Shown piece after piece: positions 2,634-52,079 of a DNA stretch of 64,000 bases. The DNA lies in the IMG/VR virus record IMGVR_UViG_3300049846_002429, positions 3,160 to 67,159 of that record; one strand, given 5' to 3'. The position numbers and the translations under genes are program-made. Under the pieces are notes generated by a model. That model did no database searches and was not told the origin of the DNA. It worked only from the letters and a program-made list of their open reading frames with translations. Each line of letters starts with the position of its first letter. The first letter of the stretch is position 1. This DNA comes from a virus.

Positions 2634-3326
2634 ATGGCTAAAATTATTAAAAATACTACAGGTTCAAGCATTGCTATAGCAGATACAGGAATTACAGTTC
2701 CTGCTAATTCTCAATATACAATTCCACCACAAGATTATTGGCTTTGGGCTGCATCTGATAACATCATTACCAGAGTTGGCAATGGGTCAATCGTAGTTAA
2801 CGATGGTTCTTTTGATCTTGGAATATCAGATGGAATGGATTTAATTAAAGGATTATTTCCTGCTCAAGTAGAGGTTAAAAGTGTTCCTGGAGAAATAGTT
2901 GTCGTTAGAGACGATGACCTTAATGTTACCCTCGCTTCAATAGCTTCAAGTTTAGGAGCTACCTCTGGAAACGGTATAGTAAAATATGGTATGACTCCTG
3001 TAACTACAAAAACAGAAACAGATTTAACAGACACCATTTACACAGTACCTTCAGGCAAGAAATTTTCAATAAATAATTTTACAGGCTCTTATGATTTACA
3101 GTTTACAACAATAGTTAGATTCAAAAAACAGACTGGTGGTACAGGAGCATTTAATACGATGTTTGCTATGACATTGCAGGTTGGTGGTCAAGGACAAAGC
3201 ACCATTCCTATAAATTTTGGTAACGGAGTTATTGTAGGCTCTGCAGGAGATGTTTTTAAAATTACCTATGAAACAACCAACTCTAGAGGCAACATAAGAG
3301 CTTTTTTTACAGGAAATGAAATTTAA
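2634..3326 (+). CDS. hypothetical protein (structural block)
   Basis: 230-aa ORF; ATGG overlap with next gene. Confidence 0.5.
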   Translation: MAKIIKNTTGSSIAIADTGITVPANSQYTIPPQDYWLWAASDNIITRVGNGSIVVNDGSFDLGISDGMDLIKGLFPAQVEVKSVPGEIVVVRDDDLNVTLASIASSLGATSGNGIVKYGMTPVTTKTETDLTDTIYTVPSGKKFSINNFTGSYDLQFTTIVRFKKQTGGTGAFNTMFAMTLQVGGQGQSTIPINFGNGVIVGSAGDVFKITYETTNSRGNIRAFFTGNEI

Positions 3327-8034: not shown

Positions 8035-8052
8035 TAAAAGCGTTATGATTTG

Positions 8053-34712: not shown

Positions 34713-35335
34713 GCGAAGATTCTTTGATAAATCCCAAATTAAAACTCCATAAATATGTAGGCTTGCTCGAATTCTATTTTGAGACAGGCATGGAGCAAAT
34801 GGGCGTGATTTTTCATGATGATCGTGGCAATCACGAAGGTCCTAAGTGGGACAATCCTAATGAAACCATGATTTATCGGTCACTTTCTTGGGCTATTTGG
34901 CTTGGAGATCGAGCTGGACTATATAAAATTCGCATCTTTGATAAAGAAAACAATGTAGTTTACGAAGGCCCATTGACGCAAGATAAGAGAAAGATTAAAG
35001 AATCTAAATATTCGATTAGCTTTCTTCCCAAAGAAATCGACAAACGCACCTGGATAAAATATTGTCAGGAAGAGTATAGAGCAGAGCTTTATACAAATAT
35101 GCTAACGGACGCTCTTCAGCAAGAATATAAGCTTGATTTTAAAATAGGCGAGCAAGTTCACGACGACCTAACGTCCAAAGATGTGGTAGTATTAAACGTA
35201 ACCCTTGGGAATAATAAAACAGTCGGCTATTGGGTTAATAGCGATTATCTTGAGGGCGGCAGACATCCTTGGGAGCTTTCTAAGATTGACTGGAGAAAGC
35301 GATGGGAAGAGGAGAAAAAGAAACATGAAGATTGA
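34709..35335 (+). CDS. hypothetical protein (GTG start)
   Basis: GGGAG 6 nt upstream of GTG, which overlaps the upstream stop. Confidence 0.45.
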   Translation: MSEDSLINPKLKLHKYVGLLEFYFETGMEQMGVIFHDDRGNHEGPKWDNPNETMIYRSLSWAIWLGDRAGLYKIRIFDKENNVVYEGPLTQDKRKIKESKYSISFLPKEIDKRTWIKYCQEEYRAELYTNMLTDALQQEYKLDFKIGEQVHDDLTSKDVVVLNVTLGNNKTVGYWVNSDYLEGGRHPWELSKIDWRKRWEEEKKKHED

Positions 35336-36155
35336 AACCGTTGACCTAAATCCCAGTTCTATTGGCGAGAGCCTGGTGCGCTCATTGCGTGAGACCGGAT
35401 TCGCTGTAATCACCAACCATGGCATTCCTAAAGAAATGTTTGACCTAACCTATGAAACATGGGCAAAATATTTTGCATCAGAAGAAAAATTCAAAGATCT
35501 TTTTAGCGCTGAAAAACAGCGCGGCTATTATCCAATGAAATCTGAAAATGCCAAAGGATATGATAAGAAGGACCTGAAAGAGTTTTTCCATATTTATCCT
35601 GATATGGTGCTTGAGCCACAACATGGCGGCTCAAATACATGGGCATTATACACATTGATGTCTAGACTTGGCGACAGGCTGTTGAGATTGATTAACGATC
35701 ACTCTCCGGTTGAATTTCCGGTTCCTTTGCACAAAATGGCCCAGAACAGCCCTCAAACATTGCTTCGCGTTCTACACTATCCTCCTATTGGAGATGATTC
35801 TGATGGCGCAGTAAGAGCTGCGGCACATGAAGATATTAATCTAATCACACTGCTTCCTGCCGCAACCTATCCAGGCTTGCAAGTAAAAACAGCTACTGGC
35901 GATTGGATTTTTGCAGATCAACATGTTCCGGCAGACGCTATCATTATAAATGCAGGCGACATGCTGCAAGAAGCATCTGGCGGTTATTTCAAATCAACTA
36001 CACATCGGGTTGTAAATCCTACTGGCCACGGAGCAACCGTTTCTCGCTATTCTATGCCGATGTTTATACATCCTCATTCTGAAGTGCGCTTGTCTGACAG
36101 GTACACCGCAGGAGAATATCTTGATGAAAGATTGAGGGAATTGGGGTTAAAATAA
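35325..36155 (+). CDS. 2OG-Fe(II) oxygenase family protein
   Basis: HEDIN (HxD), distal H in TTHRVVNP, RYSMP; RBS GAGGAG. Confidence 0.6.
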   Translation: MKIETVDLNPSSIGESLVRSLRETGFAVITNHGIPKEMFDLTYETWAKYFASEEKFKDLFSAEKQRGYYPMKSENAKGYDKKDLKEFFHIYPDMVLEPQHGGSNTWALYTLMSRLGDRLLRLINDHSPVEFPVPLHKMAQNSPQTLLRVLHYPPIGDDSDGAVRAAAHEDINLITLLPAATYPGLQVKTATGDWIFADQHVPADAIIINAGDMLQEASGGYFKSTTHRVVNPTGHGATVSRYSMPMFIHPHSEVRLSDRYTAGEYLDERLRELGLK

Positions 36156-37439: not shown

Positions 37440-37473
37440 TTCCCTCCCAAAATAAACGAAAAGACGTAAAGAA

Positions 37474-37498
37474 GGCAGGCTCCCCCCTGCCTTTTTTA
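37474..37498 (+). terminator. rho-independent terminator
   Basis: GGCAGG-ctcccc-CCTGCC followed by TTTTTTATTTT. Confidence 0.7.
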
Positions 37499-37503
37499 TT
37501 TTG

Positions 37504-37512
37504 TGGTATAAT
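37504..37512 (+). promoter_or_regulatory. extended -10 promoter TTGTGGTATAAT
   Basis: Exact 12-mer. Confidence 0.55.
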
Positions 37513-37528: not shown

Positions 37529-37795
37529 ATGTATAAAGTGGGAGACAAGGTTTCGTATTCTCCTAAAAACCACAAAGCTACGATTATTAGGGTCCTGCCT
37601 GGGGACGAATATACTATTGAGTTTGAAGATACTCAGCTTATTCCTCCACAAATGAAGGTTCCTGGCGAATATTTAAGCCGACCTTCCAGCGAGACCAACT
37701 GTCCTAGATGTGGCAAGGAATGGACAGAGACTGTTATAGGAAGAAATACGTTTTACGACTGCATACCATGCAAACTTAAAAAGGAGGATGCATAA
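37529..37795 (+). CDS. zinc-ribbon small protein
   Basis: CPRCG...CIPC; RBS GAGGAG. Confidence 0.5.
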   Translation: MYKVGDKVSYSPKNHKATIIRVLPGDEYTIEFEDTQLIPPQMKVPGEYLSRPSSETNCPRCGKEWTETVIGRNTFYDCIPCKLKKEDA

Positions 37796-38385
37796 TGGAT
37801 GAACATCAGAAGAAACCCAAAGTTCTCGTCACTAGTTTTAGTGAAAAGGCTATTGCAGATGTCATTAAAGATCTGGAAATTATTGAACATACATATCAGC
37901 CTAATCAGCCGATTTTGGTTCAAATTGACAGCTATGGTGGAGCGGTAGATGGCCTATCAATGTTGTATGATAAGCTGAAAAGCATGGACAATCCGATCAT
38001 GACCTACACTTCCAGCAAAGCTATGAGCGCAGGAGCCATTCTTTTGTCTACGGCGGCCTCTAAAAATATGCGTATGGCAAGTCCAGAGGCGGTGATTATG
38101 ATTCACGAGATTCAGTCTGGTGCTGGCGGTGACATTAAAGACATCGAAGACCAAATGGTTTATAATAAAATGGTCAACGACCGCTGGATGAAGATCTTGG
38201 CTAAGTCTATGGGCTTGAAAAGTGCCTCTGATATCAGGGCTTTAATCAAGAAAAAGGCCATTGGACACGATATCTATCTTACAGCTCAGCAAGCCTACCA
38301 GTTAAAACTGATCGATGCTGTGGGAAGTGTCAAAATGATGCCTTTTTATGGCTGGAATTTCCTTGCAATGAAGTCCGAAAGGTAG
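37795..38385 (+). CDS. ClpP-like serine protease family protein
   Basis: TYTSSKAMSAGAILLS resembles the ClpP GxASMGxxLL motif; MIHEIQSG region. Confidence 0.45.
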   Translation: MDEHQKKPKVLVTSFSEKAIADVIKDLEIIEHTYQPNQPILVQIDSYGGAVDGLSMLYDKLKSMDNPIMTYTSSKAMSAGAILLSTAASKNMRMASPEAVIMIHEIQSGAGGDIKDIEDQMVYNKMVNDRWMKILAKSMGLKSASDIRALIKKKAIGHDIYLTAQQAYQLKLIDAVGSVKMMPFYGWNFLAMKSER

Positions 38386-38703: not shown

Positions 38704-38915
38704 AAGCTTTAAATTTGATCTTACTTGCTCTTGCTGGCGCGATGCTGCTTAGCATGACTACTGGAGTGGTTTTGTCTTTAATCCTTCCGCAGGAGATTGC
38801 CTCACCTCTTCATCTTGTTTTGTCTTTTCTTATTGGATGGAATGCAAGGCAGGTAACGGAGAAGATTTTAGGATATACCCTGAAAGAAGCTCTAGAGGAA
38901 AAAAAGAGTGAATAA
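38700..38915 (+). CDS. small membrane protein
   Basis: Two TM helices. Confidence 0.45.
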   Translation: MKALNLILLALAGAMLLSMTTGVVLSLILPQEIASPLHLVLSFLIGWNARQVTEKILGYTLKEALEEKKSE

Positions 38916-39225
38916 TTTTGTAATTGGCATTGCCATTCTTATTCTTTTGAACTTATTGATTCCATACTCTCGTATGTTCGATAATTCTGGCGATGTTACT
39001 TATACTAAAGACGTTCAACCAATCATCCAAAATCGTTGCTCGCAGTGCCATAATCAAAATTGGCCAGATAAGAATTGGATGGATTACGACACTGCTTTTA
39101 AAAATAAAGATAAGATTAAGATGCGCCTTCAAAATCAATCTATGCCTCCTGGAAACACCACAAATATGACAAAAGAAGAGCGCCAAACAGTAATTGATTG
39201 GGTTGATGGTGGAGGTAAAAAATGA
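38908..39225 (+). CDS. membrane-anchored/secreted protein with a CxxCH haem-binding motif (candidate mono-haem c-type cytochrome)
   Basis: N-terminal hydrophobic segment followed by NRCSQCHNQNW. Confidence 0.4.
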   Translation: MNNFVIGIAILILLNLLIPYSRMFDNSGDVTYTKDVQPIIQNRCSQCHNQNWPDKNWMDYDTAFKNKDKIKMRLQNQSMPPGNTTNMTKEERQTVIDWVDGGGKK

Positions 39226-40386: not shown

Positions 40387-41271
40387 GTGAATTTAATTGA
40401 AAGATTACACAGCAAAAATTTAATCAAACCACCAAGCTTTGTTGTCGGTGGAACCCAATATATGACCCTTATGGGTTCGATTGCATATGGAGTATCGTCA
40501 GACGCATCTGACTGCGATATCTATGGATTTTGCATTCCTCCAAAAGATTATATCTTCCCTCATTTAGCAGGCCATATTCCAGGGTTTTCAACCCAGGTTC
40601 AGGGGTTTGATCAATATCAAGAACATCATATCAAAGAAAAAGACCATAACAAGTCTTACGACTTGAATATTTATTCGATCATTAAGTATTTCAGACTGGT
40701 TATGGATAACAATCCTAACATGATTGACTCTCTGTTTACAGCACAAAATATGGTCTTAACCTCTACAAAAATTTCAGATATGGTTCGAGACCAGCGTAAA
40801 ATGTTCCTTCATAAAGGCTCGTGGCACAAGTTTAAGGGCTATGCCTATAGTCAGATGCATAAAATGAAAATCAAAGAGCCAGACCCAGATTCTGTGCGCT
40901 TTGAGATGGTCCAAAAATATGGATATGATGTAAAGTTTGCCTATCATGTTGTTCGTCTTCTAGATGAGGTCGAGCAGATTCTCATGGAAGGTGATATTGA
41001 CCTTATGAGAAATAGAGAGCAGTTAAAATCTATTCGTCGTGGGGAGTGGAAGATGGAAGATATCGAAGCTCATTTTACTCGAAAAGAAAAAGATCTAGAA
41101 ACTGCTTACGTTAACAGTAAACTTCAGCATAAGCCAGATGAGAAGAAAATCAGACAGCTTCTTATAGACTGTCTGGAAGAGCATTTTGGCGACCTTTCAA
41201 CAGCAGTAAACAAAGAAAACGATTCAACAATAATTTTAAAACAAATTAAGGAGCTAGTGAAAAACGTATGA
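40387..41271 (+). CDS. Pol-beta-superfamily nucleotidyltransferase
   Basis: GSIAYGVSSDASDCDIYGF (GS...D.D); GTG start with GGGAG RBS. Confidence 0.55.
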   Translation: MNLIERLHSKNLIKPPSFVVGGTQYMTLMGSIAYGVSSDASDCDIYGFCIPPKDYIFPHLAGHIPGFSTQVQGFDQYQEHHIKEKDHNKSYDLNIYSIIKYFRLVMDNNPNMIDSLFTAQNMVLTSTKISDMVRDQRKMFLHKGSWHKFKGYAYSQMHKMKIKEPDPDSVRFEMVQKYGYDVKFAYHVVRLLDEVEQILMEGDIDLMRNREQLKSIRRGEWKMEDIEAHFTRKEKDLETAYVNSKLQHKPDEKKIRQLLIDCLEEHFGDLSTAVNKENDSTIILKQIKELVKNV

Positions 41272-41391
41272 GAACGATAGACATTTATGTTGCTGTTATA
41301 GACACATTAATCCTTCTTTTGCTGATCGGATGGTCTTACATGGATAGGCACAATTTATATATTGAAAAGAAAAAAAAGAGGAGAAAATAAG

Positions 41392-41787
41392 ATGATTCTG
41401 TTCGTAGCATCAAACCCATCAAAACTTAATACAGACCCAACAATTGCAATGGTAGGCTCTAAATCAGAGAAAACCTTCAATAGCTGGGCAGAATACCTAT
41501 CCAACCACACTAGAGATTTTGTTGTTATCAACGCTTCCAATAAAGTTTTAAAAGACGGAGAAGTTCTTAAGGTTGAGGATATTGATTTTGAAAAGCTTAT
41601 TCGATGGACACATGATAAGTATATCACTAAGATCGTGGCGTTAGGAAATGTGGCTTCAAAAGCTCTTTCTTATGTTGGAGCTGAGCACTATAAGTTACCA
41701 CACCCAAGCCCTCGAAATCGTTTCTTAAATAACACTGAGCAGGTTGAGGCGGTTTTAGAAAATTGCAAACAGTGGCTGGAGACATAG
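41392..41787 (+). CDS. uracil-DNA-glycosylase-superfamily-like protein (atypical motifs)
   Basis: LFVASNPS (motif-A-like) and KLPHPSPRN (motif-B-like HPSP); RBS AGAGGAG. Confidence 0.35.
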   Translation: MILFVASNPSKLNTDPTIAMVGSKSEKTFNSWAEYLSNHTRDFVVINASNKVLKDGEVLKVEDIDFEKLIRWTHDKYITKIVALGNVASKALSYVGAEHYKLPHPSPRNRFLNNTEQVEAVLENCKQWLET

Positions 41788-42372
41788 ATGCTTACGGCAA
41801 TGGGAGATGTTCTTAGAGAGGCACATAAGCGTGGGTGGATTACCACTCGTGACGGCAATATTTCTTTAAGGCGTAATGGTAAGTTTTACATCACACCTTC
41901 TGCTGGTAGAAAAACCATTATTCATCCAGAACACATTATCAAATTTTCAATTGAAAATAATTTGCTACAAATTCCACCTGATTTTGTGGCAAAGCCTAGT
42001 ATTGAGCTTGATATGCATTGGGGATTGCAAAGGTTACACAAAGGTACGAGGGCTGTTGTTCATCTTCACCCTACTTATACAATTGCAGCCATGTATGCTG
42101 GATTAGATCTTTATCAAATTACCAAAGAATTTCCAGAGCTTAAAAGATATACGAAAATAGGGAATACGGCTTCTTATTCTGAACCTGGAAGTCAAGATCT
42201 TGCAGAAAATGTTGTAAAAGGGTTGACGAGGCAGGGTAAATTAGCGTATGATATTATAGGAATGGACAGACATGGTGTTTGTGCTATTGGTAAGAGTCCT
42301 TGGGATGCGTTTGAGCATATTGAGCGACTCGAACATATTTGTCAAATTGTATTAGCTTCGGGGAGAAAATAA
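41788..42372 (+). CDS. class II aldolase/adducin-domain protein
   Basis: DGNISLR, YITPSAG, VVHLHPTY. Confidence 0.5.
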   Translation: MLTAMGDVLREAHKRGWITTRDGNISLRRNGKFYITPSAGRKTIIHPEHIIKFSIENNLLQIPPDFVAKPSIELDMHWGLQRLHKGTRAVVHLHPTYTIAAMYAGLDLYQITKEFPELKRYTKIGNTASYSEPGSQDLAENVVKGLTRQGKLAYDIIGMDRHGVCAIGKSPWDAFEHIERLEHICQIVLASGRK

Positions 42373-43310
42373 TGCCAACAATTACTGTATTGGTAGGGCC
42401 GCCTGGGTCTGGTAAGAGTACATTTGCTAACGATTATTGCAGAAATCATCCACTGCCTCCAAATTGCACCAGAATTAGCCAAGACGATCAGGGTAAAGAT
42501 GGCCATATGAGCCTTTTCAATAGCGCTTTGTCGGCTCGCTCAGATCTTGTTATTGATCGCATGAATTTTGATAAAAATCAGCGTGAGCGATATCTTAAGC
42601 CTGCTCGTGATGCTGGATATGCAACTAGAATCATTGTTTTTCACGTTTCTTTGAAAACGTGTCTTGAGCGTTGTGCTGCAAGAGAAAATCACCCAACTAT
42701 TCAAGATGCGAAAACGGCCAGTCAAGCTGTTAACTTCTTCTTTAGTAAATATGAGCGAGTTCAGGATGATGAGGCTGATGAGGTTATGCGAATGGGATGG
42801 GTAGATATTAGAGCACCAAAGTGTATTTGGTCAGACCTTGACGGAACTGTTGCTGATGTTGAGCATCGCCGCAGACACGTTCGTCCATCCGTTGTAGCCA
42901 CGACCCATCGTTTGGAAGACTTGCCTGCTGAGCCAGTTAAGTTTAAGCCAAACTGGAAAGCTTTTTTCGATGAAATGGAACTTGACCCAGTTGATGAGAC
43001 TGTTAGGTCGATTCTTGATGATAAATCACACACATATCCTATTGTCTATGCTACAGGTAGGCCGGATAATTACAAGCAACAGACAGAAAGATGGCTCATT
43101 GAAAATGGCCTGAGATATCCAGGCTCTTCGCTGTTTATGCGTATGCGTAACGATATGCGTAGAGACGATATTGTTAAAGAGATCATTTTGGAATTTGAAG
43201 TAAAAACAAAATATAACGTATTCTTTGCCCTTGATGATAGAGATCAAGTTGTAAAAATGCTTAGAAAACATGGCGTAAAAGTTTTACAATGCGCCGAAGG
43301 AGATTTTTAA
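42372..43310 (+). CDS. polynucleotide 5'-kinase/3'-phosphatase (T4 Pnk-like)
   Basis: N-terminal P-loop VLVGPPGSGKST; C-terminal HAD motif IWSDLDGTVAD. Confidence 0.65.
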   Translation: MPTITVLVGPPGSGKSTFANDYCRNHPLPPNCTRISQDDQGKDGHMSLFNSALSARSDLVIDRMNFDKNQRERYLKPARDAGYATRIIVFHVSLKTCLERCAARENHPTIQDAKTASQAVNFFFSKYERVQDDEADEVMRMGWVDIRAPKCIWSDLDGTVADVEHRRRHVRPSVVATTHRLEDLPAEPVKFKPNWKAFFDEMELDPVDETVRSILDDKSHTYPIVYATGRPDNYKQQTERWLIENGLRYPGSSLFMRMRNDMRRDDIVKEIILEFEVKTKYNVFFALDDRDQVVKMLRKHGVKVLQCAEGDF

Positions 43311-43591
43311 TGGAAAGTTTTAAATTTGATGGCTCAGATTATGTGCCCAAAAGAGACGATGTAAGATTGTCGGTCCAATATCTTCGTATTTTTGAATTGA
43401 TGAAAGACGGAGTTTATCGCACGTTGCTAGAAATTGAGCAGAAAACAGGAGACCCACAGGCTTCTATTTCTGCCCAACTTAGACACATGAGAAAAGAGCG
43501 TTTTGGCTCACACGTTATTAATAAAATTTATTTAGGAAAAGGATTGTATCAATACCAACTTATTGTAAATGCAGGAGGCTCTAATGTTTGA
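43310..43591 (+). CDS. small winged-helix-like DNA-binding protein
   Basis: RBS GAAGGAG; TAATG coupling. Confidence 0.4.
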   Translation: MESFKFDGSDYVPKRDDVRLSVQYLRIFELMKDGVYRTLLEIEQKTGDPQASISAQLRHMRKERFGSHVINKIYLGKGLYQYQLIVNAGGSNV

Positions 43592-44822
43592 AAACGTAAA
43601 ACTTAGCTGGTTTAAAAAAGCTGCAAAATTGGAAGAGGGCGTTGCCGATATCAGCGCCGGACCATCTGGCGAGCAAGAAGAGCAAACAGATTCTGGCTCA
43701 ACCTACAAAGTTCCTCTGACTAAGATCTTGGCCATTGAGCCGCATCCTAATGCAGATCGTCTTGAGTTGGCCACTGTTTATGGGTTTCAGGTTATTGTAA
43801 AGAAAGATTCGTATAAGGTCGGCGACTCCATGATTTACATTCCTATTGACTCTATCTTGCCTAAGAATTTGGAAGACTCTCTATTTCCTGAAGACTCCAA
43901 GGTTAAATTAAATAAGAGTCGAGTTAGACAGATTCGCCTTCGTAAGATCGCTTCTCAAGGCATGTTGATTTCTCCAGAAGAGATTAAGGCTGTATTTGGA
44001 TTTCTACCCAATGAAGATGAGCGTGATTATTCAAAAGAATTGCAAGTTAAGAAATATCAGCCGCCTGCTCCAAAGTTTCAATCAGCGATGACCGGAGCGC
44101 GAAAGGTAAAGCCATTAGAAAATCCTTTATTTCACAAGTATAATGGTCTAGATAATATAAAATGGTTTCCCACACTGTTTAAAGATGGTGAAATCGTCGT
44201 AATGCAAGAGAAGATTCATGGTACGAATGCGCGAGCAGGAAAGCTTCCTTTTGTCGCAAACAATCTTTGGAAAAAGATTAAAAAAGCGCTTAAACTAGTT
44301 CCGGCCTTTGAATTCTGCTATGGTTCTAACAACGTACAACTTCAGGAGCGTCAGGGCTATACAGGTTTTTATGGAGAGGATATCTATGGTAGGGTTTTTA
44401 AAGCGATGGATGTTGAGTCTAGGCTTAAAGATGGCGAGACCATTTTCGGAGAAATCTATGGAGAGGGTATTCAGAAGGGATACAATTACGGTCTCAAAAA
44501 CGAACAACGATTCATCTTATTTGACGTTAAAGTCCTCGACTATGAAGGAAAACAGCGCTGGCTAGGCCCAGACGAGGTTAAGGCGTTTGCAAAAGAGCGC
44601 GGCTTTGATTTGGTGCCAGAAGTCTACAGAGGCCCATTTTCACTGCCACTGGCTAAAGAATTGACAAAAGGCGACTCTATACTGGCTCCTTCTCAGAAGG
44701 TTAGAGAAGGCGTGGTAGTTAAGGCTCTACATGGTTATAGCGATGAACGTGGTAACAATAAGGCTTTAAAGGTGATTTCAGAGGCTTATCTAGATAATGC
44801 CGATAACACGGATTTCCATTAA
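43584..44822 (+). CDS. RNA ligase, Rnl2 family (nucleotidyltransferase motif I KIHGTN)
   Basis: EKIHGTNARAG matches T4 Rnl2 motif I; EGVVVK resembles motif IV; AGGAGG RBS 5 nt before internal ATG. Confidence 0.6.
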   Translation: MFENVKLSWFKKAAKLEEGVADISAGPSGEQEEQTDSGSTYKVPLTKILAIEPHPNADRLELATVYGFQVIVKKDSYKVGDSMIYIPIDSILPKNLEDSLFPEDSKVKLNKSRVRQIRLRKIASQGMLISPEEIKAVFGFLPNEDERDYSKELQVKKYQPPAPKFQSAMTGARKVKPLENPLFHKYNGLDNIKWFPTLFKDGEIVVMQEKIHGTNARAGKLPFVANNLWKKIKKALKLVPAFEFCYGSNNVQLQERQGYTGFYGEDIYGRVFKAMDVESRLKDGETIFGEIYGEGIQKGYNYGLKNEQRFILFDVKVLDYEGKQRWLGPDEVKAFAKERGFDLVPEVYRGPFSLPLAKELTKGDSILAPSQKVREGVVVKALHGYSDERGNNKALKVISEAYLDNADNTDFH

Positions 44823-44843
44823 TTTGACACTGCAGGGGAATTG

Positions 44844-44852
44844 TGGTATTAT
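44844..44852 (+). promoter_or_regulatory. extended -10 promoter TTGTGGTATTAT (6 nt from ATG 44859)
   Basis: Motif overlaps the TTG-initiated upstream extension of the ORF. Confidence 0.4.
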
Positions 44853-44858
44853 AGAAGT

Positions 44859-45659
44859 ATGAAAGTAAACCTAGTTGGAGACATTACAGGATTTTTTGAA
44901 AGCTTTAAGGCTTTGATGGGCCAAATGCCCACCGGAGAGCTTTGGGCTTTGGGAGACCTTGTTGATCGAGGTCCTGGCTCTAAACAGGTACTAGATTACT
45001 TTATTGATGGCAAGCACAATTCTGTTATGGGCAACCATGATCACATGATGCTTTTTGAAAGCATTCGTAATAATTCTGACGTTAACTCTAGACTTTATCC
45101 GTATGGATGCTGGATTGCAAATGGTGGAGATGAGACCACAAAGAGTTTTGGCTTTAAAGAGTGGTATGAGTTTGATTCTGCAAAGATTGATAGTAAATAT
45201 TTTGAGTTTCTAAAAAATATGCCTCTACAAGTAGACATAGGCGCTCTTAAGTTGACACATGCTCCTATTAACGATAAAAATAATAAAAGAGCTTTTGATT
45301 TGAAGGAGATAAACAAAGACCCCTATTTGATTGATAAGAGTATTTTGTGGAACCGTCTTCCTCCTAAAAAGATGGAAGGAAAATTTCAGGTTTATGGACA
45401 CAATTCTTCCAAGGGGATATTGTGGCATACAAATAAATTTCCTCAAGGAGTTTACATGGCAGACCCTTTTGAGGTTCCAGAAGGAGCTTGGGGAGTTTGT
45501 ATAGATACTTGGGGTAGAGGATATTTAACTGGACTGCACATCGACACCGTTTTGTTGGCAGACCCGAAACAGGCAATAACCGTATTTAAACAACCTTTTG
45601 TGAATTCTGATGTTGCTGCTATAGAGGAAATGATATGGAAACAAAAACAGAGGAAGTAA
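44859..45659 (+). CDS. Ser/Thr-phosphatase-type metallophosphoesterase (lambda PPase/ApaH-like)
   Basis: VGDITG, LGDLVDRGP, GNHDHMM; start ambiguous (TTG 44841 versus ATG 44859). Confidence 0.6.
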   Translation: MKVNLVGDITGFFESFKALMGQMPTGELWALGDLVDRGPGSKQVLDYFIDGKHNSVMGNHDHMMLFESIRNNSDVNSRLYPYGCWIANGGDETTKSFGFKEWYEFDSAKIDSKYFEFLKNMPLQVDIGALKLTHAPINDKNNKRAFDLKEINKDPYLIDKSILWNRLPPKKMEGKFQVYGHNSSKGILWHTNKFPQGVYMADPFEVPEGAWGVCIDTWGRGYLTGLHIDTVLLADPKQAITVFKQPFVNSDVAAIEEMIWKQKQRK

Positions 45660-46252
45660 AAGAAAAACTTCCACAATATACAGAATTCGAGTCTAAATAT
45701 AGAGTCGAAGGCGACCAGATTTATGCTTTCAAGCAGATCGTAGAAGGCCTTAACGAACCATACGATTTCCTATATGTTCAAGGACCTGATTATTATTTTG
45801 TCCGAGATGATGAGCGCTTTGCTAGATATCGCAAGGCCGAAAATGACAAGTCTGGCAGAGCTGAGGTAACTTTTAAGCTCAAGCCTATTGGTGCTAAAAA
45901 CAACATTCAGCGCAGAGAGTATAATTGGCGAGTAGATAAAACTCCATATACCGAGATTGCCGAAGGACTTGAAGATCAGGGATATAAATTTAACTTTAAG
46001 ATATGGAAAATGTGCCACATCTATAAGTTTAAAGAGGCAACGCTGGTATTTTATACAGTTCAAGATGAAAAAAACAAACTAGATCACTTTGTCGAGATCG
46101 AGCTAGATGAAGCAAGTATTCACGATTTAACTCAAGACGAAGCTATGGAAAAGATTAGGAAATACGAAACGGTACTAGCGCCTCTTGGGATTAGCCATAG
46201 AAGTCGATTGACCAAAAGCTTGTTTGAAATGTATGTGAGGGTAAAAGCATGA
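45635..46252 (+). CDS. CYTH-like triphosphate tunnel metalloenzyme
   Basis: N-terminal EFESKY (ExExK) and VEIELDE acidic strand. Confidence 0.45.
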   Translation: METKTEEVKEKLPQYTEFESKYRVEGDQIYAFKQIVEGLNEPYDFLYVQGPDYYFVRDDERFARYRKAENDKSGRAEVTFKLKPIGAKNNIQRREYNWRVDKTPYTEIAEGLEDQGYKFNFKIWKMCHIYKFKEATLVFYTVQDEKNKLDHFVEIELDEASIHDLTQDEAMEKIRKYETVLAPLGISHRSRLTKSLFEMYVRVKA

Positions 46253-46803
46253 GCCAAACTTTAATCGGCATTATTTTGTTGGTACTTTTGTCTTTTTCTT
46301 TTTTTGTACTTTTTGTAAAGGTGCAAGGTCTTTTTATTCGTAAGCGTCCATTTAAAGTTAAAGATGGCGGCGTTTATGCTTCAGACGTTGATGATACACT
46401 GATTATGTGGCGCATTCCAGAGGGCTATACAGGTCCGTTGGTAGAAACAAATTATAATGGCTTTAAAGATAAGGGAATTCCCAACCAACACGCGATTGAT
46501 CATTTGAAGAAAATGAAGGCTCGCGCCTACTCCGTAGTTGTTTGGTCTGCCGGAGGCTCTGATTGGGCTGAGGTTGTTGTTGAGGCTTTGGGTCTAGAAG
46601 AATATGTGGATGTTACTATGCCAAAGATCGATTTTCATCTTGATGACGTTCCAGATGCAACAGATAAAATTGGCAAGTGGCAATATATTAATTTAGATGG
46701 CACTGTTTATAGTAAAGATAAAGAAGGTAATGTTCACGCTAGAAAACATGGTATTATACAACCATACGGAGGATTAAATGGACAAAAAAAATCTGATAGG
46801 TAA
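46249..46803 (+). CDS. HAD-superfamily phosphatase with N-terminal TM anchor
   Basis: DVDDTL, VVWSAGG, HLDD. Confidence 0.5.
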   Translation: MSQTLIGIILLVLLSFSFFVLFVKVQGLFIRKRPFKVKDGGVYASDVDDTLIMWRIPEGYTGPLVETNYNGFKDKGIPNQHAIDHLKKMKARAYSVVVWSAGGSDWAEVVVEALGLEEYVDVTMPKIDFHLDDVPDATDKIGKWQYINLDGTVYSKDKEGNVHARKHGIIQPYGGLNGQKKSDR

Positions 46804-47062
46804 AATAGCGGTTCAGGTTGGTCCTAATAATTCTCTAAGTATTGGGAATTTATACGTTGTTAGACCATATGTTTACGAAGAACTTGACATTGAAAATGGA
46901 ATAGATCGTCCAGTGGTAGATCTACTTAATATCGAAGAAAATTTAATTGAAACGGCTTACTTATCTCAATTCAATCACAATGGAAATGACTGGAGATATA
47001 GAGTTCTTTCAGAAACAGAAATTAATAATTTAAAATTATATCTAAAAGGAGAGTATAAATGA
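46778..47062 (+). CDS. hypothetical protein
   Basis: RBS GGAGG. Confidence 0.45.
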   Translation: MDKKNLIGKIAVQVGPNNSLSIGNLYVVRPYVYEELDIENGIDRPVVDLLNIEENLIETAYLSQFNHNGNDWRYRVLSETEINNLKLYLKGEYK

Positions 47063-47724
47063 AAAAAAGTCTAAAAATTGAAGTCGAAGGTACAGACGGT
47101 GCTGGTAAGACTACGGCCCTTAAATACATGATTGAAGAACTGCAAAAACGCGGTTCTAAAGTTTTGGAAACTCGTGAGGTTGGCTCACCACTTATTCCTA
47201 TTAATGTGAAGTTGCGAGAGATGGTTTTGTCTCCAGAGTCTAATTTGAGCGGAGAAGCCATGGAACTTATTTTTTCAGCCATGCGTTTTGAAAATGATCG
47301 TTTCTATAAGTCTGTAGAAAATGAATATGACTTTATTGTTTCTGATCGCGGTTGGTTTTCACATCTTGCCTATACAGATCACAATGTTAGCGTAGGCTTT
47401 ACAGAAGATCTTTATTTGAACTTTTTACAGCGTTATACAAACTTGCCAGATGTGGTGGTTTATTTCTCAGTCAACACAGAAACTGCACTAAAGCGACGAG
47501 TTAAGCGCGGTGGAGCTGTGGATGTTATTGAAGCTAAGGGCGTTGGATATCAAGAGCTAGTTCGTGAATCATTTGAAAAACGTCTAGATATAAACAAGCC
47601 TGTTAAAACCAAGATCTTCCGAGTGGACGCAAATGACACAGTAGAGGGAGTTCGGTCTCAAATTGATACAATCGTCAATTTATTGACCTTAGATAGCGAT
47701 GTCAAAATCCAAAAAAGTTTATAA
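47059..47724 (+). CDS. tmk: thymidylate kinase
   Basis: EGTDGAGKTT P-loop and DRGWFSHLAY. Confidence 0.8.
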   Translation: MKKSLKIEVEGTDGAGKTTALKYMIEELQKRGSKVLETREVGSPLIPINVKLREMVLSPESNLSGEAMELIFSAMRFENDRFYKSVENEYDFIVSDRGWFSHLAYTDHNVSVGFTEDLYLNFLQRYTNLPDVVVYFSVNTETALKRRVKRGGAVDVIEAKGVGYQELVRESFEKRLDINKPVKTKIFRVDANDTVEGVRSQIDTIVNLLTLDSDVKIQKSL

Positions 47725-48497: not shown

Positions 48498-48881
48498 ATG
48501 AAGCCAAGTGATTTTGTTAAAGCATGTGTGATGCGCGAGGCAAAAGATATTCAACCAATTAAGGACCGACTTCAGTCCACTGAAAATGTCCGTCTTCTTC
48601 ATGCCATGATTGGTATGGTTACGGAAGCTGGCGAGATTCAAGATCAGATGAAAAAGGCTATTTTCTACGGAAAACAGATTGATAAAGTCAATTTGGTCGA
48701 AGAATTGGGCGATGTAATGTGGTATGTGGCTATTGCTGCCGACACTCTAGGGGTGTCCTTAGAAGAGATTATGGAGCGCAATAACGCCAAGCTAGAGGCT
48801 CGATATGGCAAGGTTTTTACTGAAACAGCAGCCCTAAATCGTGATCTAGACAAAGAGCGTGAGATCTTAGAGAAAAAATAG
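48498..48881 (+). CDS. mazG: MazG-like nucleoside triphosphate pyrophosphohydrolase
   Basis: EAGEIQD and EELGDVMWY. Confidence 0.7.
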   Translation: MKPSDFVKACVMREAKDIQPIKDRLQSTENVRLLHAMIGMVTEAGEIQDQMKKAIFYGKQIDKVNLVEELGDVMWYVAIAADTLGVSLEEIMERNNAKLEARYGKVFTETAALNRDLDKEREILEKK

Positions 48882-50751: not shown

Positions 50752-51984
50752 TTATAGCAATTCTGACGCAAGTTCTGCAAGTTCAGATCTTTCACACTTA
50801 CTAAAGTGAATGTGGGCCGCAATTTCCTTGTCTTTAAATTTATCAATAACGTAAGACAGGCCATTACTCATCGAGTCAACCTTTGGATTGTCGATCTGAT
50901 AAATATCTCCTGTGAGGATAATTTTAGTTCCTTCGCCAGCTCTTGAAATAATAGTCTTTACTTCGTGTCTTGTTAGATTCTGTGCCTCGTCGATAATAAT
51001 GAATTCATTTGGAATACTTCTTCCTCTGATGTAGGCAAGCGCTTCCATTTTAAGCAATCCTTCATTAACCAGTTCTTCCCATGCGTTTCTTGATTTTTTA
51101 CCCTGATTGTCAAAAAGGAATTCAATATTATCCATGATCGGCTGCATCCATGGTGCAAGTTTTTCATTTAGATCGCCTGGAAGATATCCAAGATCTTGAC
51201 CCATAGGAATGACAGGTCTTGCCACGATCATTTTTTTATGACTTCCCTTATTGATTATTGCCTCTAGTCCAGCAACAATTGACAGTAAGGTTTTACCTGT
51301 ACCTGCCTTACCAGTGAGGGTTACTAGTTTAATATTGTCATCGAGAAGAGCATCGAGAGCACATCTTTGCTCCACGTTTTTATGAGAAATACCCCAAAGA
51401 GTAAAATCTCTCCCCAGTTTGTGAAGGCCGCTCTTGGTGCTTTTGTAAATACCATCGTGGCAAACCAGATATTGGTTTAAATTCTTGTTTTTATATTTAC
51501 CAAAGATCTCTTTTGCGGCTTCGGCGGCTTGGCCTGTTAGAACGCCCTTGTAAAGAACGTCTGCGCTGGCCTCGGTCATTTCATACCGCTCAACTTTGAT
51601 GTTTCTGGCCCTTGCTAAGACTCCCATGAGGATGTCGTTGGTTACCATGGTAACATCATACATTTCAGATAGGTGTTGGGCCGATGCGATGATTTTTTCA
51701 TCTGCAGTGCCTTCGTAGCGTTCACTGCTATGAAACCAGATCTTATCTTGATTTCGTTCTATATATCTAGCGAATTCTCTTACACTTCTGGCCTTTTCTG
51801 AATGACCATGCTTGTGTTTGTCGAGTTCTGAAAGAACTGTAGTGGGTACGTAAATACGACCATTTAGCTTTTTAACGATATTCGGGTCATTTATAATGAC
51901 GTTTGTATCGACTACGTAAACCCTTTCTTTTCTAGGAGATTTTGGAACCCTTGACGACCTTGAATGTTTTTCGCCTTTTTGCAT
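50752..51984 (-). CDS. phoH: PhoH-like ATPase with N-terminal PIN domain
   Basis: YVVDTNVIINDP (PIN) and LTGKAGTGKTLLS Walker A. Confidence 0.8.
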   Translation of the reverse strand: MQKGEKHSRSSRVPKSPRKERVYVVDTNVIINDPNIVKKLNGRIYVPTTVLSELDKHKHGHSEKARSVREFARYIERNQDKIWFHSSERYEGTADEKIIASAQHLSEMYDVTMVTNDILMGVLARARNIKVERYEMTEASADVLYKGVLTGQAAEAAKEIFGKYKNKNLNQYLVCHDGIYKSTKSGLHKLGRDFTLWGISHKNVEQRCALDALLDDNIKLVTLTGKAGTGKTLLSIVAGLEAIINKGSHKKMIVARPVIPMGQDLGYLPGDLNEKLAPWMQPIMDNIEFLFDNQGKKSRNAWEELVNEGLLKMEALAYIRGRSIPNEFIIIDEAQNLTRHEVKTIISRAGEGTKIILTGDIYQIDNPKVDSMSNGLSYVIDKFKDKEIAAHIHFSKCERSELAELASELL

Positions 51985-52038: not shown

Positions 52039-52047
52039 ATAATACCA
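52039..52047 (-). promoter_or_regulatory. extended -10 promoter (minus strand TGGTATTAT) upstream of phoH
   Basis: Reverse complement of ATAATACCA. Confidence 0.45.
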
Positions 52048-52079
52048 CAGGAAGCATTACAAAGAACATAAATAGGGCA

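Follow-up and report, generated by a model that had tools for sequence, protein, structure and literature searches.

A phage locus that probably joins an RNA-break repair set with an Rnl5-type ligase to a neighbouring nucleotide-metabolism block

The virus record IMGVR_UViG_3300049846_002429 of IMG/VR contains, at its positions 3,160 to 67,159, a 64,000-nucleotide stretch, here called the window, which carries at window positions 40387-46803 a dense row of genes for nucleic-acid end chemistry. Ten open reading frames (ORFs) lie back to back on the plus strand, and they are predicted to encode the nucleotidyltransferase RlaP, a 5'-kinase/3'-phosphatase (Pnk), an RNA ligase, a metallophosphoesterase (MPE), a CYTH protein, a HAD phosphatase, a small protein of the uracil-DNA glycosylase (UDG) fold, an aldolase and two small proteins (Table 1). 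The tight same-strand array was present where the original prediction had placed it, and each of its fold calls holds at the superfamily level; its gene list was incomplete in that the class II aldolase had been overlooked. The region is probably a composite, carried by an uncultured phage, of an RNA-break repair set (set A) and an adjacent nucleotide-metabolism block (block B).

The array is tightly built. The majority of starts overlap or abut the preceding stop, and after re-reading of the starts (likely true positions: UDG 41392, Pnk 42372, small protein 43310, ligase 43584 and MPE 44859) the majority have a Shine-Dalgarno sequence, such as the GGGGAG ahead of Pnk. From 37.5 to 50.3 kb the genes all run in one direction with little space between them, a long gene array of the kind typical of large phage, and the relatives found in metagenomes are carried by contigs of about 100-170 kb. 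The window has a G+C content of about 40% and contains no tRNA genes. Neither a blastn search with the whole region nor tblastn searches with the CYTH protein and an 809-amino-acid ORF matched any of 50,697 phage records; no cultured reference genome was usable. The PADLOC defence-system models returned nothing meaningful. For comparison, 185 related loci (L001-L185) were gathered by using the ligase, CYTH, the aldolase, RlaP and the UDG-like protein as anchors; their ORFs were scored by iterated profile searches, with flanks examined up to 10 kb.

Table 1. Features of the window locus and of its immediate surroundings
Feature	Coordinates	Strand	Basis
Terminator-like hairpin and promoter-like TGTGGTATAAT	37466..37512	+	14-pair stem 37466-37499 with T-run; motif 37502-37512
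RlaP, Pol-beta nucleotidyltransferase	40387..41271	+	PF10127 8e-20, 72 bits against cutoff 23; phrog_388 6e-47
40-amino-acid hydrophobic ORF, uncertain gene	41268..41390	+	ORF with AAGGAG upstream
Mini-UDG-fold protein, 131 amino acids	41392..41787	+	Homologues with PF03167; predicted structure matches UDG fold
Class II aldolase/adducin-fold enzyme, 194 amino acids	41788..42372	+	PF00596 2.3e-29
Pnk, 5'-kinase/3'-phosphatase	42372..43310	+	PF13671 6.7e-20; PF25109 1e-29; phrog_505 8e-49
93-amino-acid protein, possible winged-helix HTH	43310..43591	+	Member of very large family
Rnl5 (DraRnl/NgrRnl) RNA ligase	43584..44822	+	TIGR02306; PF21189 3.7e-18; PF09414 1.5e-21; phrog_968 7e-58
Promoter-like extended -10 TGTGGTATTAT	44842..44852	+	TTGACA 17 nt upstream; interval between ligase stop and MPE start
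PPP-family metallophosphoesterase (MPE)	44859..45659	+	PF00149 2e-8; phrog_246 1e-24; NF001204 ApaH 2e-11
CYTH/triphosphate-tunnel metalloenzyme	45635..46252	+	Homologues with PF01928; invariant motifs; predicted structure
Stand-alone HAD phosphatase, NIF/SCP-like	46249..46803	+	HAD motifs I-IV; some homologues PF03031 or PF12710
Thymidylate kinase (Tmk)	47059..47724	+	PF02223 1.5e-22
MazG-type nucleotide pyrophosphohydrolase	48498..48881	+	PF03819 1.6e-9

Set A spans 40387-44822 and, judged by its sequence, is a putative healing-and-sealing set of the known kind that comprises RlaP, Pnkp and an ATP-dependent ligase. Its first gene, previously called a Pol-beta nucleotidyltransferase, is RlaP, with a Pfam score well over the cutoff and with the catalytic motif GS...DxD (MGSIAYGVSSDASDCDIYG). 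The family takes its name from its association with RNA ligases, according to the summary in PMC7824862 and to PMC12776372. RlaP enzymes add one or two nucleoside monophosphates (NMPs) to the 3'-OH ends of RNA only, never of DNA, and prefer a mimic of cleaved tRNA; phage T4 encodes an RlaP, NrdC.11 (PMC12776372). By analogy, the window protein is predicted to add one or two nucleotides to RNA 3'-OH ends. The kinase-phosphatase call for Pnk is borne out by matches to AAA_33 and HAD_PNKP (1e-29). This protein has the architecture of T4 Pnkp, with an N-terminal P-loop kinase (GPPGSGKST and SQDD) followed by a C-terminal DxDxT HAD phosphatase (DLDGT, TGRP and DDRDQVV) in one polypeptide, and its best PDB matches are Pnkp1 of Capnocytophaga gingivalis (4xrp, 8e-18) and T4 Pnk (1ltq, 9e-13).

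The sealing enzyme had been assigned to the Rnl2 type, which has to be corrected. Rnl2 ligases possess a signature C-terminal domain, and the window ligase terminates 14 residues past its nucleotidyltransferase domain; against the Rnl2 model TIGR02307 it scores 26.6 bits and fails the cutoff of 197.15, whereas against the curated DraRnl model TIGR02306 it reaches 170.1 bits with a cutoff of 151.15. An N-terminal OB domain is recognised at residues 50-134 by PF21189 (PHA02142 OB-fold), residues 56-167 align to the N-domain of NgrRnl, and the best PDB match is NgrRnl itself (5cou). Since it passes TIGR02306, fails TIGR02307, has the OB domain and matches NgrRnl, the protein is an Rnl5 rather than an Rnl2 ligase, with the motifs KIHGTN, FGEIYGE, REGVVVK and KALKVI. 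Members of the Rnl5 family seal 3'-OH/5'-PO4 nicks only if the 3'-OH strand is RNA (PMC5397189; PMC4408790), and their OB domain is needed for nick joining.

The core genes persist as neighbours among the relatives. In the window locus and wherever a relative possesses one of the two genes (L001, L103, L104, L098, L078, L099, L018, L019, L039, L080, L142 and L148), a ligase comes after Pnk, which upholds the earlier view of Pnk and the adjacent RNA ligase as a healing-and-sealing pair. The ligase slot is occupied by an Rnl5 enzyme in the window locus and in L001, L103, L104, L098, L078, L099, L142 and L148, and by a T4-Rnl1-type ligase (PF09511) in L018, L019, L039 and L080. On sequence grounds this exchange is best described as non-orthologous displacement at a fixed slot, with the function apparently retained. 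RlaP joins the pair in most cases: in the window the ligase follows it after 2.3 kb within one putative transcription unit, and in L004 and L104 it directly abuts the ligase. A PolyA_pol/CCA-adding-like enzyme is found within the same locus in L098 and L104. The constancy of the Pnk-ligase pair, the presence of RlaP and the CCA-like enzyme fit the documented phage RNA-repair set and the biochemistry of RlaP. RlaP is also found apart from these genes, since the flanks of 12 RlaP-anchored loci (21 fetched) contained neither a ligase nor any other tracked family.

These data bear directly on the idea that the genes share no function at all and that the apparent cassette is an artefact of packing in a crowded early region for nucleic-acid metabolism. 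In the co-directional stretch the repair genes do stand alongside those for ClpP, Tmk, MazG and a cytochrome-c-like protein, and many of the components prefer other partners. The idea is nevertheless the least likely of all those considered, and highly improbable: Pnk and the ligase stay adjacent or nearly so through multiple rearrangements and through a swap of ligase family, RlaP abuts the ligase in two loci, and the three families form an established functional trio.

Phage RNA-repair sets that consist of an ATP-dependent RNA ligase, a PNK-HAD protein and RlaP, sometimes with a calcineurin-like phosphatase, are described in section 3.4.9 of Iyer et al. 2021 (PMC7824862), which summarises the work of Burroughs and Aravind 2016 on RlaP systems. 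Together with the RlaP of T4 (PMC12776372), this account provides precedent for the composition, which had been set apart from the classical T4 set. Set A shares with the described systems the three core families in one co-directional cluster, the calcineurin-like phosphoesterase alongside, and the predicted logic of healing ends, restoring nucleotides and sealing. It differs in its Rnl5 (DraRnl) ligase, as the account in PMC7824862 names RtcB, Rnl1 and Rnl2 and the terms 'Rnl5' and 'DraRnl' do not appear in its main text, and in that the window cluster is broken by the mini-UDG, the aldolase and the HTH-like protein and abuts a CYTH gene found across the clade. The window set adds to the known RlaP/Pnkp/RNA-ligase repair modules of phages and is no new kind of system.

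T4, in which Pnkp and Rnl1 act against the consequences of PrrC, is a further point of reference, and its tRNA-repair genes are dispersed, not clustered. The window Pnk agrees with its T4 counterpart in architecture and structure match, T4 has its own RlaP, and an Rnl1-type ligase fills the equivalent slot in relatives of the window locus. The difference lies in the sealing enzyme: the window ligase is an Rnl5, which carries an N-terminal OB domain and belongs to a family that seals duplex nicks, so its preferred substrate may differ from a break in an anticodon loop. The enzyme resembles DraRnl (DR_B0094 of Deinococcus radiodurans) and NgrRnl (Naegleria gruberi) in having an N-terminal OB domain, a C-terminal adenylyltransferase domain and no Rnl2-type C-domain; it has only about 25-30% identity to its best tblastn matches among phage records and a match of 33 bits to NgrRnl in the PDB. 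DraRnl shares its operon with a DEDDh-like exonuclease and has been implicated in DNA repair (PMC5397189), whereas the partners of the window ligase are Pnk and RlaP.

Another relevant family comprises the bacterial Pnkp/Hen1 and Pnkp1-Rnl-Hen1 systems of Clostridium thermocellum and C. gingivalis. The latter supplies the best PDB match of the window Pnk. The former includes CthPnkp, whose lambda-phosphatase-like metallophosphoesterase reportedly heals 2',3'-cyclic phosphates and provides a precedent for the MPE that neighbours the window set. Unlike these systems, the window set is without the Hen1 methyltransferase, its ligase belongs to another family, and its MPE, in which motif I is altered, stands as a protein of its own.

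A mechanism for set A can be proposed from the characterised homologues. The process would start when a ribonuclease of the host (an anticodon nuclease or toxin RNase, for instance) cuts a tRNA or another structured RNA and leaves 2',3'-cyclic-phosphate and 5'-OH ends. The HAD domain of Pnk would then strip the 3' phosphate while its P-loop domain would phosphorylate the 5' end; RlaP would add one or two NMPs to the 3'-OH if a nucleotide had also been excised; and the Rnl5 ligase would finally seal the nick between the RNA 3'-OH and the 5'-PO4. Block B, beginning at 44842 with MPE, CYTH, HAD and Tmk and including MazG further on, would serve nucleotide or polyphosphate metabolism.

The division between the two gene sets coincides with a putative promoter. 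The interval 44822-44859 is the only real intergenic gap of the array, and it holds the arrangement TTGACA-17-TGgTATTAT, which, counted with the TG, matches the sigma-70 consensus at 11 of 12 positions. Its core belongs to the motif TGTGGTATnAT, which is five-fold over-represented in the window (21 copies against 4.05 expected; none of 100 shuffles reached 21). The copies include those at 8051, 13591, 23256, 27148, 32754, 37502, 44842, 52049 (minus strand) and 63531. The majority of the copies inspected shortly precede a ribosome-binding site (RBS) and an ATG, and the motif is probably an early or host-type phage promoter. The copy at 37502 is exact, comes immediately behind the strong terminator-like hairpin and is followed by an RBS and ATG. 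Between 37502 and 44842 no further copy occurs on the plus strand except a match with one mismatch inside ClpP (37961). L001, L103 and L104 also keep the motif behind their ligase stop, despite a differing spacer. From this pattern we infer two transcription units, one that would start at the motif of 37502 and run through ClpP to the ligase and one from MPE to about 50.3 kb that would include Tmk and MazG.

The first gene of block B had been called a lambda-PPase-type phosphatase, and PF00149 together with PDB matches to ApaH (2dfj, 3e-6) and lambda PPase (1g5b, 4e-3) agrees with this. Motifs II-V of the PPP family are present; motif I (GDxHG) reads GDITG in the window protein, so that a metal-binding His is replaced by Thr. 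The form GD(I/V)TG is found in the window, L001 (2405-3205) and L103 (6747-7547), and D(I/V)HG in other relatives; the metal site is possibly altered in the window protein and its two closest relatives. The protein is a candidate end-healing enzyme for 2',3'-cyclic or 3' phosphates, or else a candidate NpnN hydrolase. The HAD gene encodes a phosphatase in which D46, D48, T50, S100, K126, D132 and D133 are invariant across 24 sequences, and a profile search of the PDB retrieved baculovirus 38K (7e-4) and also PSP (1f5s). It had been described as membrane-anchored: the HAD phosphatase with motifs I-IV stands, while the N-terminal hydrophobic segment is kept in few homologues only and most have no transmembrane segment. 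No HAD_SAK Pfam model matched the protein, and at E<=10 there were only faint matches to NIF, HAD_2, HAD and CBM27.

The CYTH protein of the window had no direct Pfam, PHROG or NCBIfam match, but homologues at about 60% identity carry PF01928. Single-sequence PDB searches with CYTH, HAD and the UDG-like protein gave noise, and profiles and structure models were used instead. The CYTH profile matched 1yem at 0.0025, and the model (pLDDT 89.7) retrieved 2dc4, 1yem, 7nsd and 3n0z with Foldseek at about 1e-9, which are archaeal triphosphate tunnel metalloenzymes (TTMs) or class IV cyclases. The residues E17, E19, K21, R64, R66, K81, K83, E154 and E156 (ExExK, RxR and ExE) are invariant, and the earlier CYTH call is well founded. 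The tunnel fold and the acidic and basic signature residues are shared with SaTTM, PF0863/PH1012 and CyaB, from which the window protein differs in belonging to a family of at least 385 clusters, largely without Pfam annotation, confined to an uncultured phage clade. A 5'-capping-like pathway had been suggested on account of the RNA triphosphatases among CYTH enzymes. It is weakly founded and was rejected: the Cet1-type enzyme Pct1 (4pn1) ranks 44th for the CYTH model, with a TMq of 0.45 against 0.65-0.69 for the archaeal TTMs, the fold comes nearest to small-molecule TTMs and to class IV cyclases and is far from Cet1/Pct1, and no guanylyl- or methyltransferase domain that could act as a capping partner turned up among the ORFs scanned. 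The evidence speaks neither for nor against a role for CYTH in RNA repair.

Whether the two gene sets form one system depends on how their members travel. The original prediction had envisaged an expanded counter-defence module, and of this proposal the core of Pnk, ligase and nucleotidyltransferase fits RNA repair, while CYTH, the UDG and the aldolase are not co-conserved with that core, an outcome that the prediction itself had counted against the module. A single nine-gene cassette is not conserved either, since the full set recurs only in one relative, 71-83% identical, at both ends of IMGVR_UViG_3300005681_000033 (L002 and L077); outside it the components are missing independently of one another. 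CYTH occurs in 34 distinct loci, and in every sampled locus of the clade because the loci were gathered through CYTH. Pnk and ligase both lie within its flanks in eight of the 34, and in the other 26 the flanks are without Pnk, ligase and RlaP. L005, for instance, has a row of MPE, CYTH, HAD and a deoxynucleoside monophosphate (dNMP) kinase with no repair genes. Downstream, Tmk follows MPE-CYTH-HAD in L001, L103, L098 and L039, and MazG lies downstream of CYTH also in L019 and L039.

These observations have to be set against the proposal that all nine enzymes constitute one expanded counter-defence pathway, in which MPE, CYTH and HAD would prepare unusual kinds of RNA end (5'-triphosphate, NpnN-capped, 2'-phosphate or cyclic) for Pnk, RlaP and Rnl5 and so widen the range of host-inflicted damage that can be repaired. 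This is unlikely. CYTH does without repair genes in 26 loci and even the MPE-CYTH-HAD row does so in L005; conversely, repair sets do without CYTH in the examined flanks of L078, L080, L099 and L093/L096. In addition, the conserved promoter motif splits the ligase from MPE, the CYTH fold is nearest to enzymes of small molecules, the HAD protein is not of the 'SAK' type, and the mini-UDG and aldolase have other conserved partners. The proposal is favoured by gene order, as (MPE-)CYTH immediately follows the repair genes whenever these occur within 10 kb of CYTH (eight loci in two CYTH clades), by the pairing of MPE-type phosphoesterases with RlaP or kinase genes in L090, L093, L096 and Rhizobium phage RHph_I1_18, and by the occasional presence of calcineurin-like phosphatases among phage RNA-repair components as recounted in PMC7824862. 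It is doubtful, more so than the pathway as a whole, that MPE, CYTH and HAD make up an unrecognised end-processing arm of phage RNA repair, and equally doubtful that such an arm renders 5'-triphosphate, NpnN-capped, polyphosphorylated or cyclic-phosphate termini ligatable; it would explain both the place of the repair genes upstream of MPE-CYTH and the co-variation of MPE and HAD with them. There is no new nine-enzyme pathway, because the other enzymes mostly belong to the neighbouring nucleotide-metabolism genes.

Several observations weigh against a composite of two separate sets. MPE is present in seven of the eight repair-bearing CYTH loci and in one of the 26 repair-free ones (Fisher value 1e-5), and HAD in six of eight and two of 26 (5e-4); since both co-vary with the repair genes, the boundary at 44842 may separate transcripts but not functions. 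The promoter there is itself read from a motif and lies merely 6 nt before the MPE ATG. Further, MPE carries Thr where the metal-binding His of motif I is expected, the Rnl5 enzymes prefer duplex nicks, and the sole physiological study of them favours ribo-patch repair of DNA (PMC5397189). Repair genes could also sit elsewhere in the apparently CYTH-only genomes, as the flanks reach up to 10 kb only. In the CYTH tree the repair-bearing loci fall into two clades with one nested loss, which corresponds to two or three independent gain or loss events. With so few independent events the Fisher values overstate the case, and neither the association nor the dissociation is statistically strong. Within the composite reading, MPE, and less surely HAD, may act as auxiliary 3'-end-healing enzymes for set A. 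This is plausible for MPE because such enzymes accompany RlaP or kinase genes elsewhere and because lambda-type enzymes can open 2',3'-cyclic phosphates, as reported for C. thermocellum Pnkp.

The mini-UDG lies among the genes of set A and raises the possibility of a DNA function. In the window it scores 23.6 bits and narrowly misses the PF03167 cutoff; the domain is present in most of its 114 homologues. Its AlphaFold2 (AF2) model (pLDDT 94.9) matches family-4 UDGs with TM values of 0.76-0.78 (1vk2, 1l9g and 4zby) and also UdgX in Foldseek, in accordance with the earlier UDG-like call. The UDG fold with motifs A and B is recognisable, with P9, S10 and LPHPSPRNR conserved. Family 4 enzymes hold an Fe-S cluster by four cysteines. 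Assignment to this family was rejected, as the protein has 131 residues and not about 190 and a single, nearly invariant, Cys, and the residue before the Pro of motif A varies (N, H, C, E or R), unlike the family-4 GE(A/G)PG. In an unbiased sample of 80 loci (L106-L185) drawn from the 258 viral stretches found, 50 have dCMP deaminase directly upstream of the mini-UDG, 22 have peptide deformylase close by, and only four have Pnk, RlaP or a ligase (three have Pnk). With dCMP deaminase as the dominant partner and repair genes rare, the natural context of the protein is the metabolism of pyrimidine deoxynucleotides or DNA; its role is probably in deoxyuridine/thymidylate or DNA metabolism, and it accompanies the repair genes only facultatively.

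The remaining rival, repair of DNA or RNA:DNA by base excision and a 'ribo-patch', turns on these proteins. The UDG would remove a base, Pnk would heal the ends, ribonucleotides would be added and Rnl5 would seal the 3'-ribo nick, along the lines proposed for DraRnl of Deinococcus. Support for this comes from DraRnl, which needs at least two 3' ribonucleotides at the nick and whose loss sensitises cells to ionising radiation (PMC5397189), from a UDG-like gene 0-4 kb from Pnk in several arrangements, and from phage MW202637, in which an Rnl5-type ligase has a family-4 UDG-like gene on one side and a DNA polymerase on the other. The scheme is very unlikely all the same, as characterised RlaP enzymes never extend DNA 3' ends (PMC12776372), the same slot is filled by an Rnl1-type ligase, whose T4 prototype repairs tRNA, in four loci, and CCA-adding-like enzymes co-locate with the repair set. 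Moreover, the mini-UDG is near repair genes in about 5% of the unbiased sample, where dCMP deaminase is its partner, and it is missing from the repair loci L104, L018 and L019.

The aldolase behaves similarly. It is FucA/MtnB-like, with NCBIfam FucA and MtnB matches that all fall under the equivalog cutoffs, and in 33 of 39 aldolase loci it stands without the other tracked families; its neighbours elsewhere are genes for cytidylyltransferase-like proteins, a pyridoxal phosphate (PLP) enzyme, glycosyltransferase and PhoH. It is missing from the close relative L103, whose CYTH is 81% identical, and looks like an accessory insertion. A dedicated role of the mini-UDG, or of the UDG and aldolase as a pair, in RNA or base-excision repair was rejected because of the dCMP-deaminase partner of the one, the sugar and PLP contexts of the other and the inactivity of RlaP on DNA.

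Neither of the two small ORFs keeps its position in the relatives. The 40-amino-acid ORF, missing in the closest relative L077, where RlaP abuts the UDG-like gene, is outside the mechanism. The 93-amino-acid protein belongs to a family with 3006 representative clusters at E<=1e-3. It had been called a winged-helix protein, for which there is weak support: ArsR-type helix-turn-helix (HTH_5) matches occur in nine of 25 family members, the best at 2.5e-4, but the window protein itself has no HTH match. No homologue of it occurs in the Pnk-ligase interval of the relatives. The mini-UDG, the aldolase and both small ORFs are facultative insertions and not steps of a pathway.

The window locus clearly places an Rnl5-type nick-sealing ligase in the setting of RNA repair, with Pnk and RlaP as its partners. 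Within one phage clade, Rnl5 and Rnl1 ligases substitute for one another in a single genomic slot, which bears on the in vivo role of the Rnl5 and Rnl2 ligases and offers a natural test system. Two large uncharacterised phage families are also brought to attention, the clade-wide CYTH and the mini-UDG that is usually paired with dCMP deaminase.

A number of further observations concern the relatives of these genes. HNH (and AP2) homing-endonuclease-like genes lie inside the block in relatives, between MPE and CYTH in L103 (7541-8023) and between the UDG and Pnk in L098 (7378-7878), and such insertions mark the locus as an insertion hotspot. The mini-UDG family has members of 115-140 amino acids, and the pair of dCMP deaminase and UDG-fold protein looks conserved in uncultured phages, where it is uncharacterised. 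Another cluster in L044 (778-4979) and L045 (5686-10255) combines a mini-UDG-like protein, an unknown protein of 351-392 amino acids, a PLP-dependent enzyme (weak match), an aldolase and an unknown protein of 349 amino acids, followed in L045 by an AAA_28 P-loop protein. It contains no RNA-repair genes and is possibly a small-molecule or DNA-modification pathway. The cultured Rhizobium phage RHph_I1_18 (L105; MN988519.1, 70454-76929) has a row of peptidyl-tRNA hydrolase, Seg homing endonuclease, RlaP, a small ORF and MPE, with a tRNA gene cluster a few kb from the RlaP-MPE pairing. In L003 (2592-10360), a set for NAD+ salvage (NMNAT-Nudix, phosphoribosyl pyrophosphate (PRPP) synthetase, Macro domain and NAMPT) immediately precedes an Rnl5-type ligase and an MPE, which are followed by ClpS, a ClpA/B-like ATPase and ThyX. 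This MPE was rejected as an orthologue of the window MPE, and a 193-amino-acid protein after the pair was rejected as a CYTH (hhalign probability 0.1%).

The surroundings of the array in the window include a 2-oxoglutarate-Fe(II) oxygenase (35205-36155) and the ClpP protease (37795-38385), the latter found upstream of CYTH in many relatives. A PIN-PhoH fusion on the minus strand (50752-51984) has its own motif copy at 52039-52049 and is kept downstream of the block in L103 and L104. Upstream of RlaP, a 105-amino-acid protein (38908-39225, plus strand) has an N-terminal hydrophobic segment and the haem-binding motif CxxCH, with sub-threshold matches to the cytochrome c models PccH (23.2 bits, cutoff 24.4) and Cytochrome_CBB3. 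A PccH-like gene precedes the UDG in L098, and L005 has a cupredoxin/plastocyanin-like gene.

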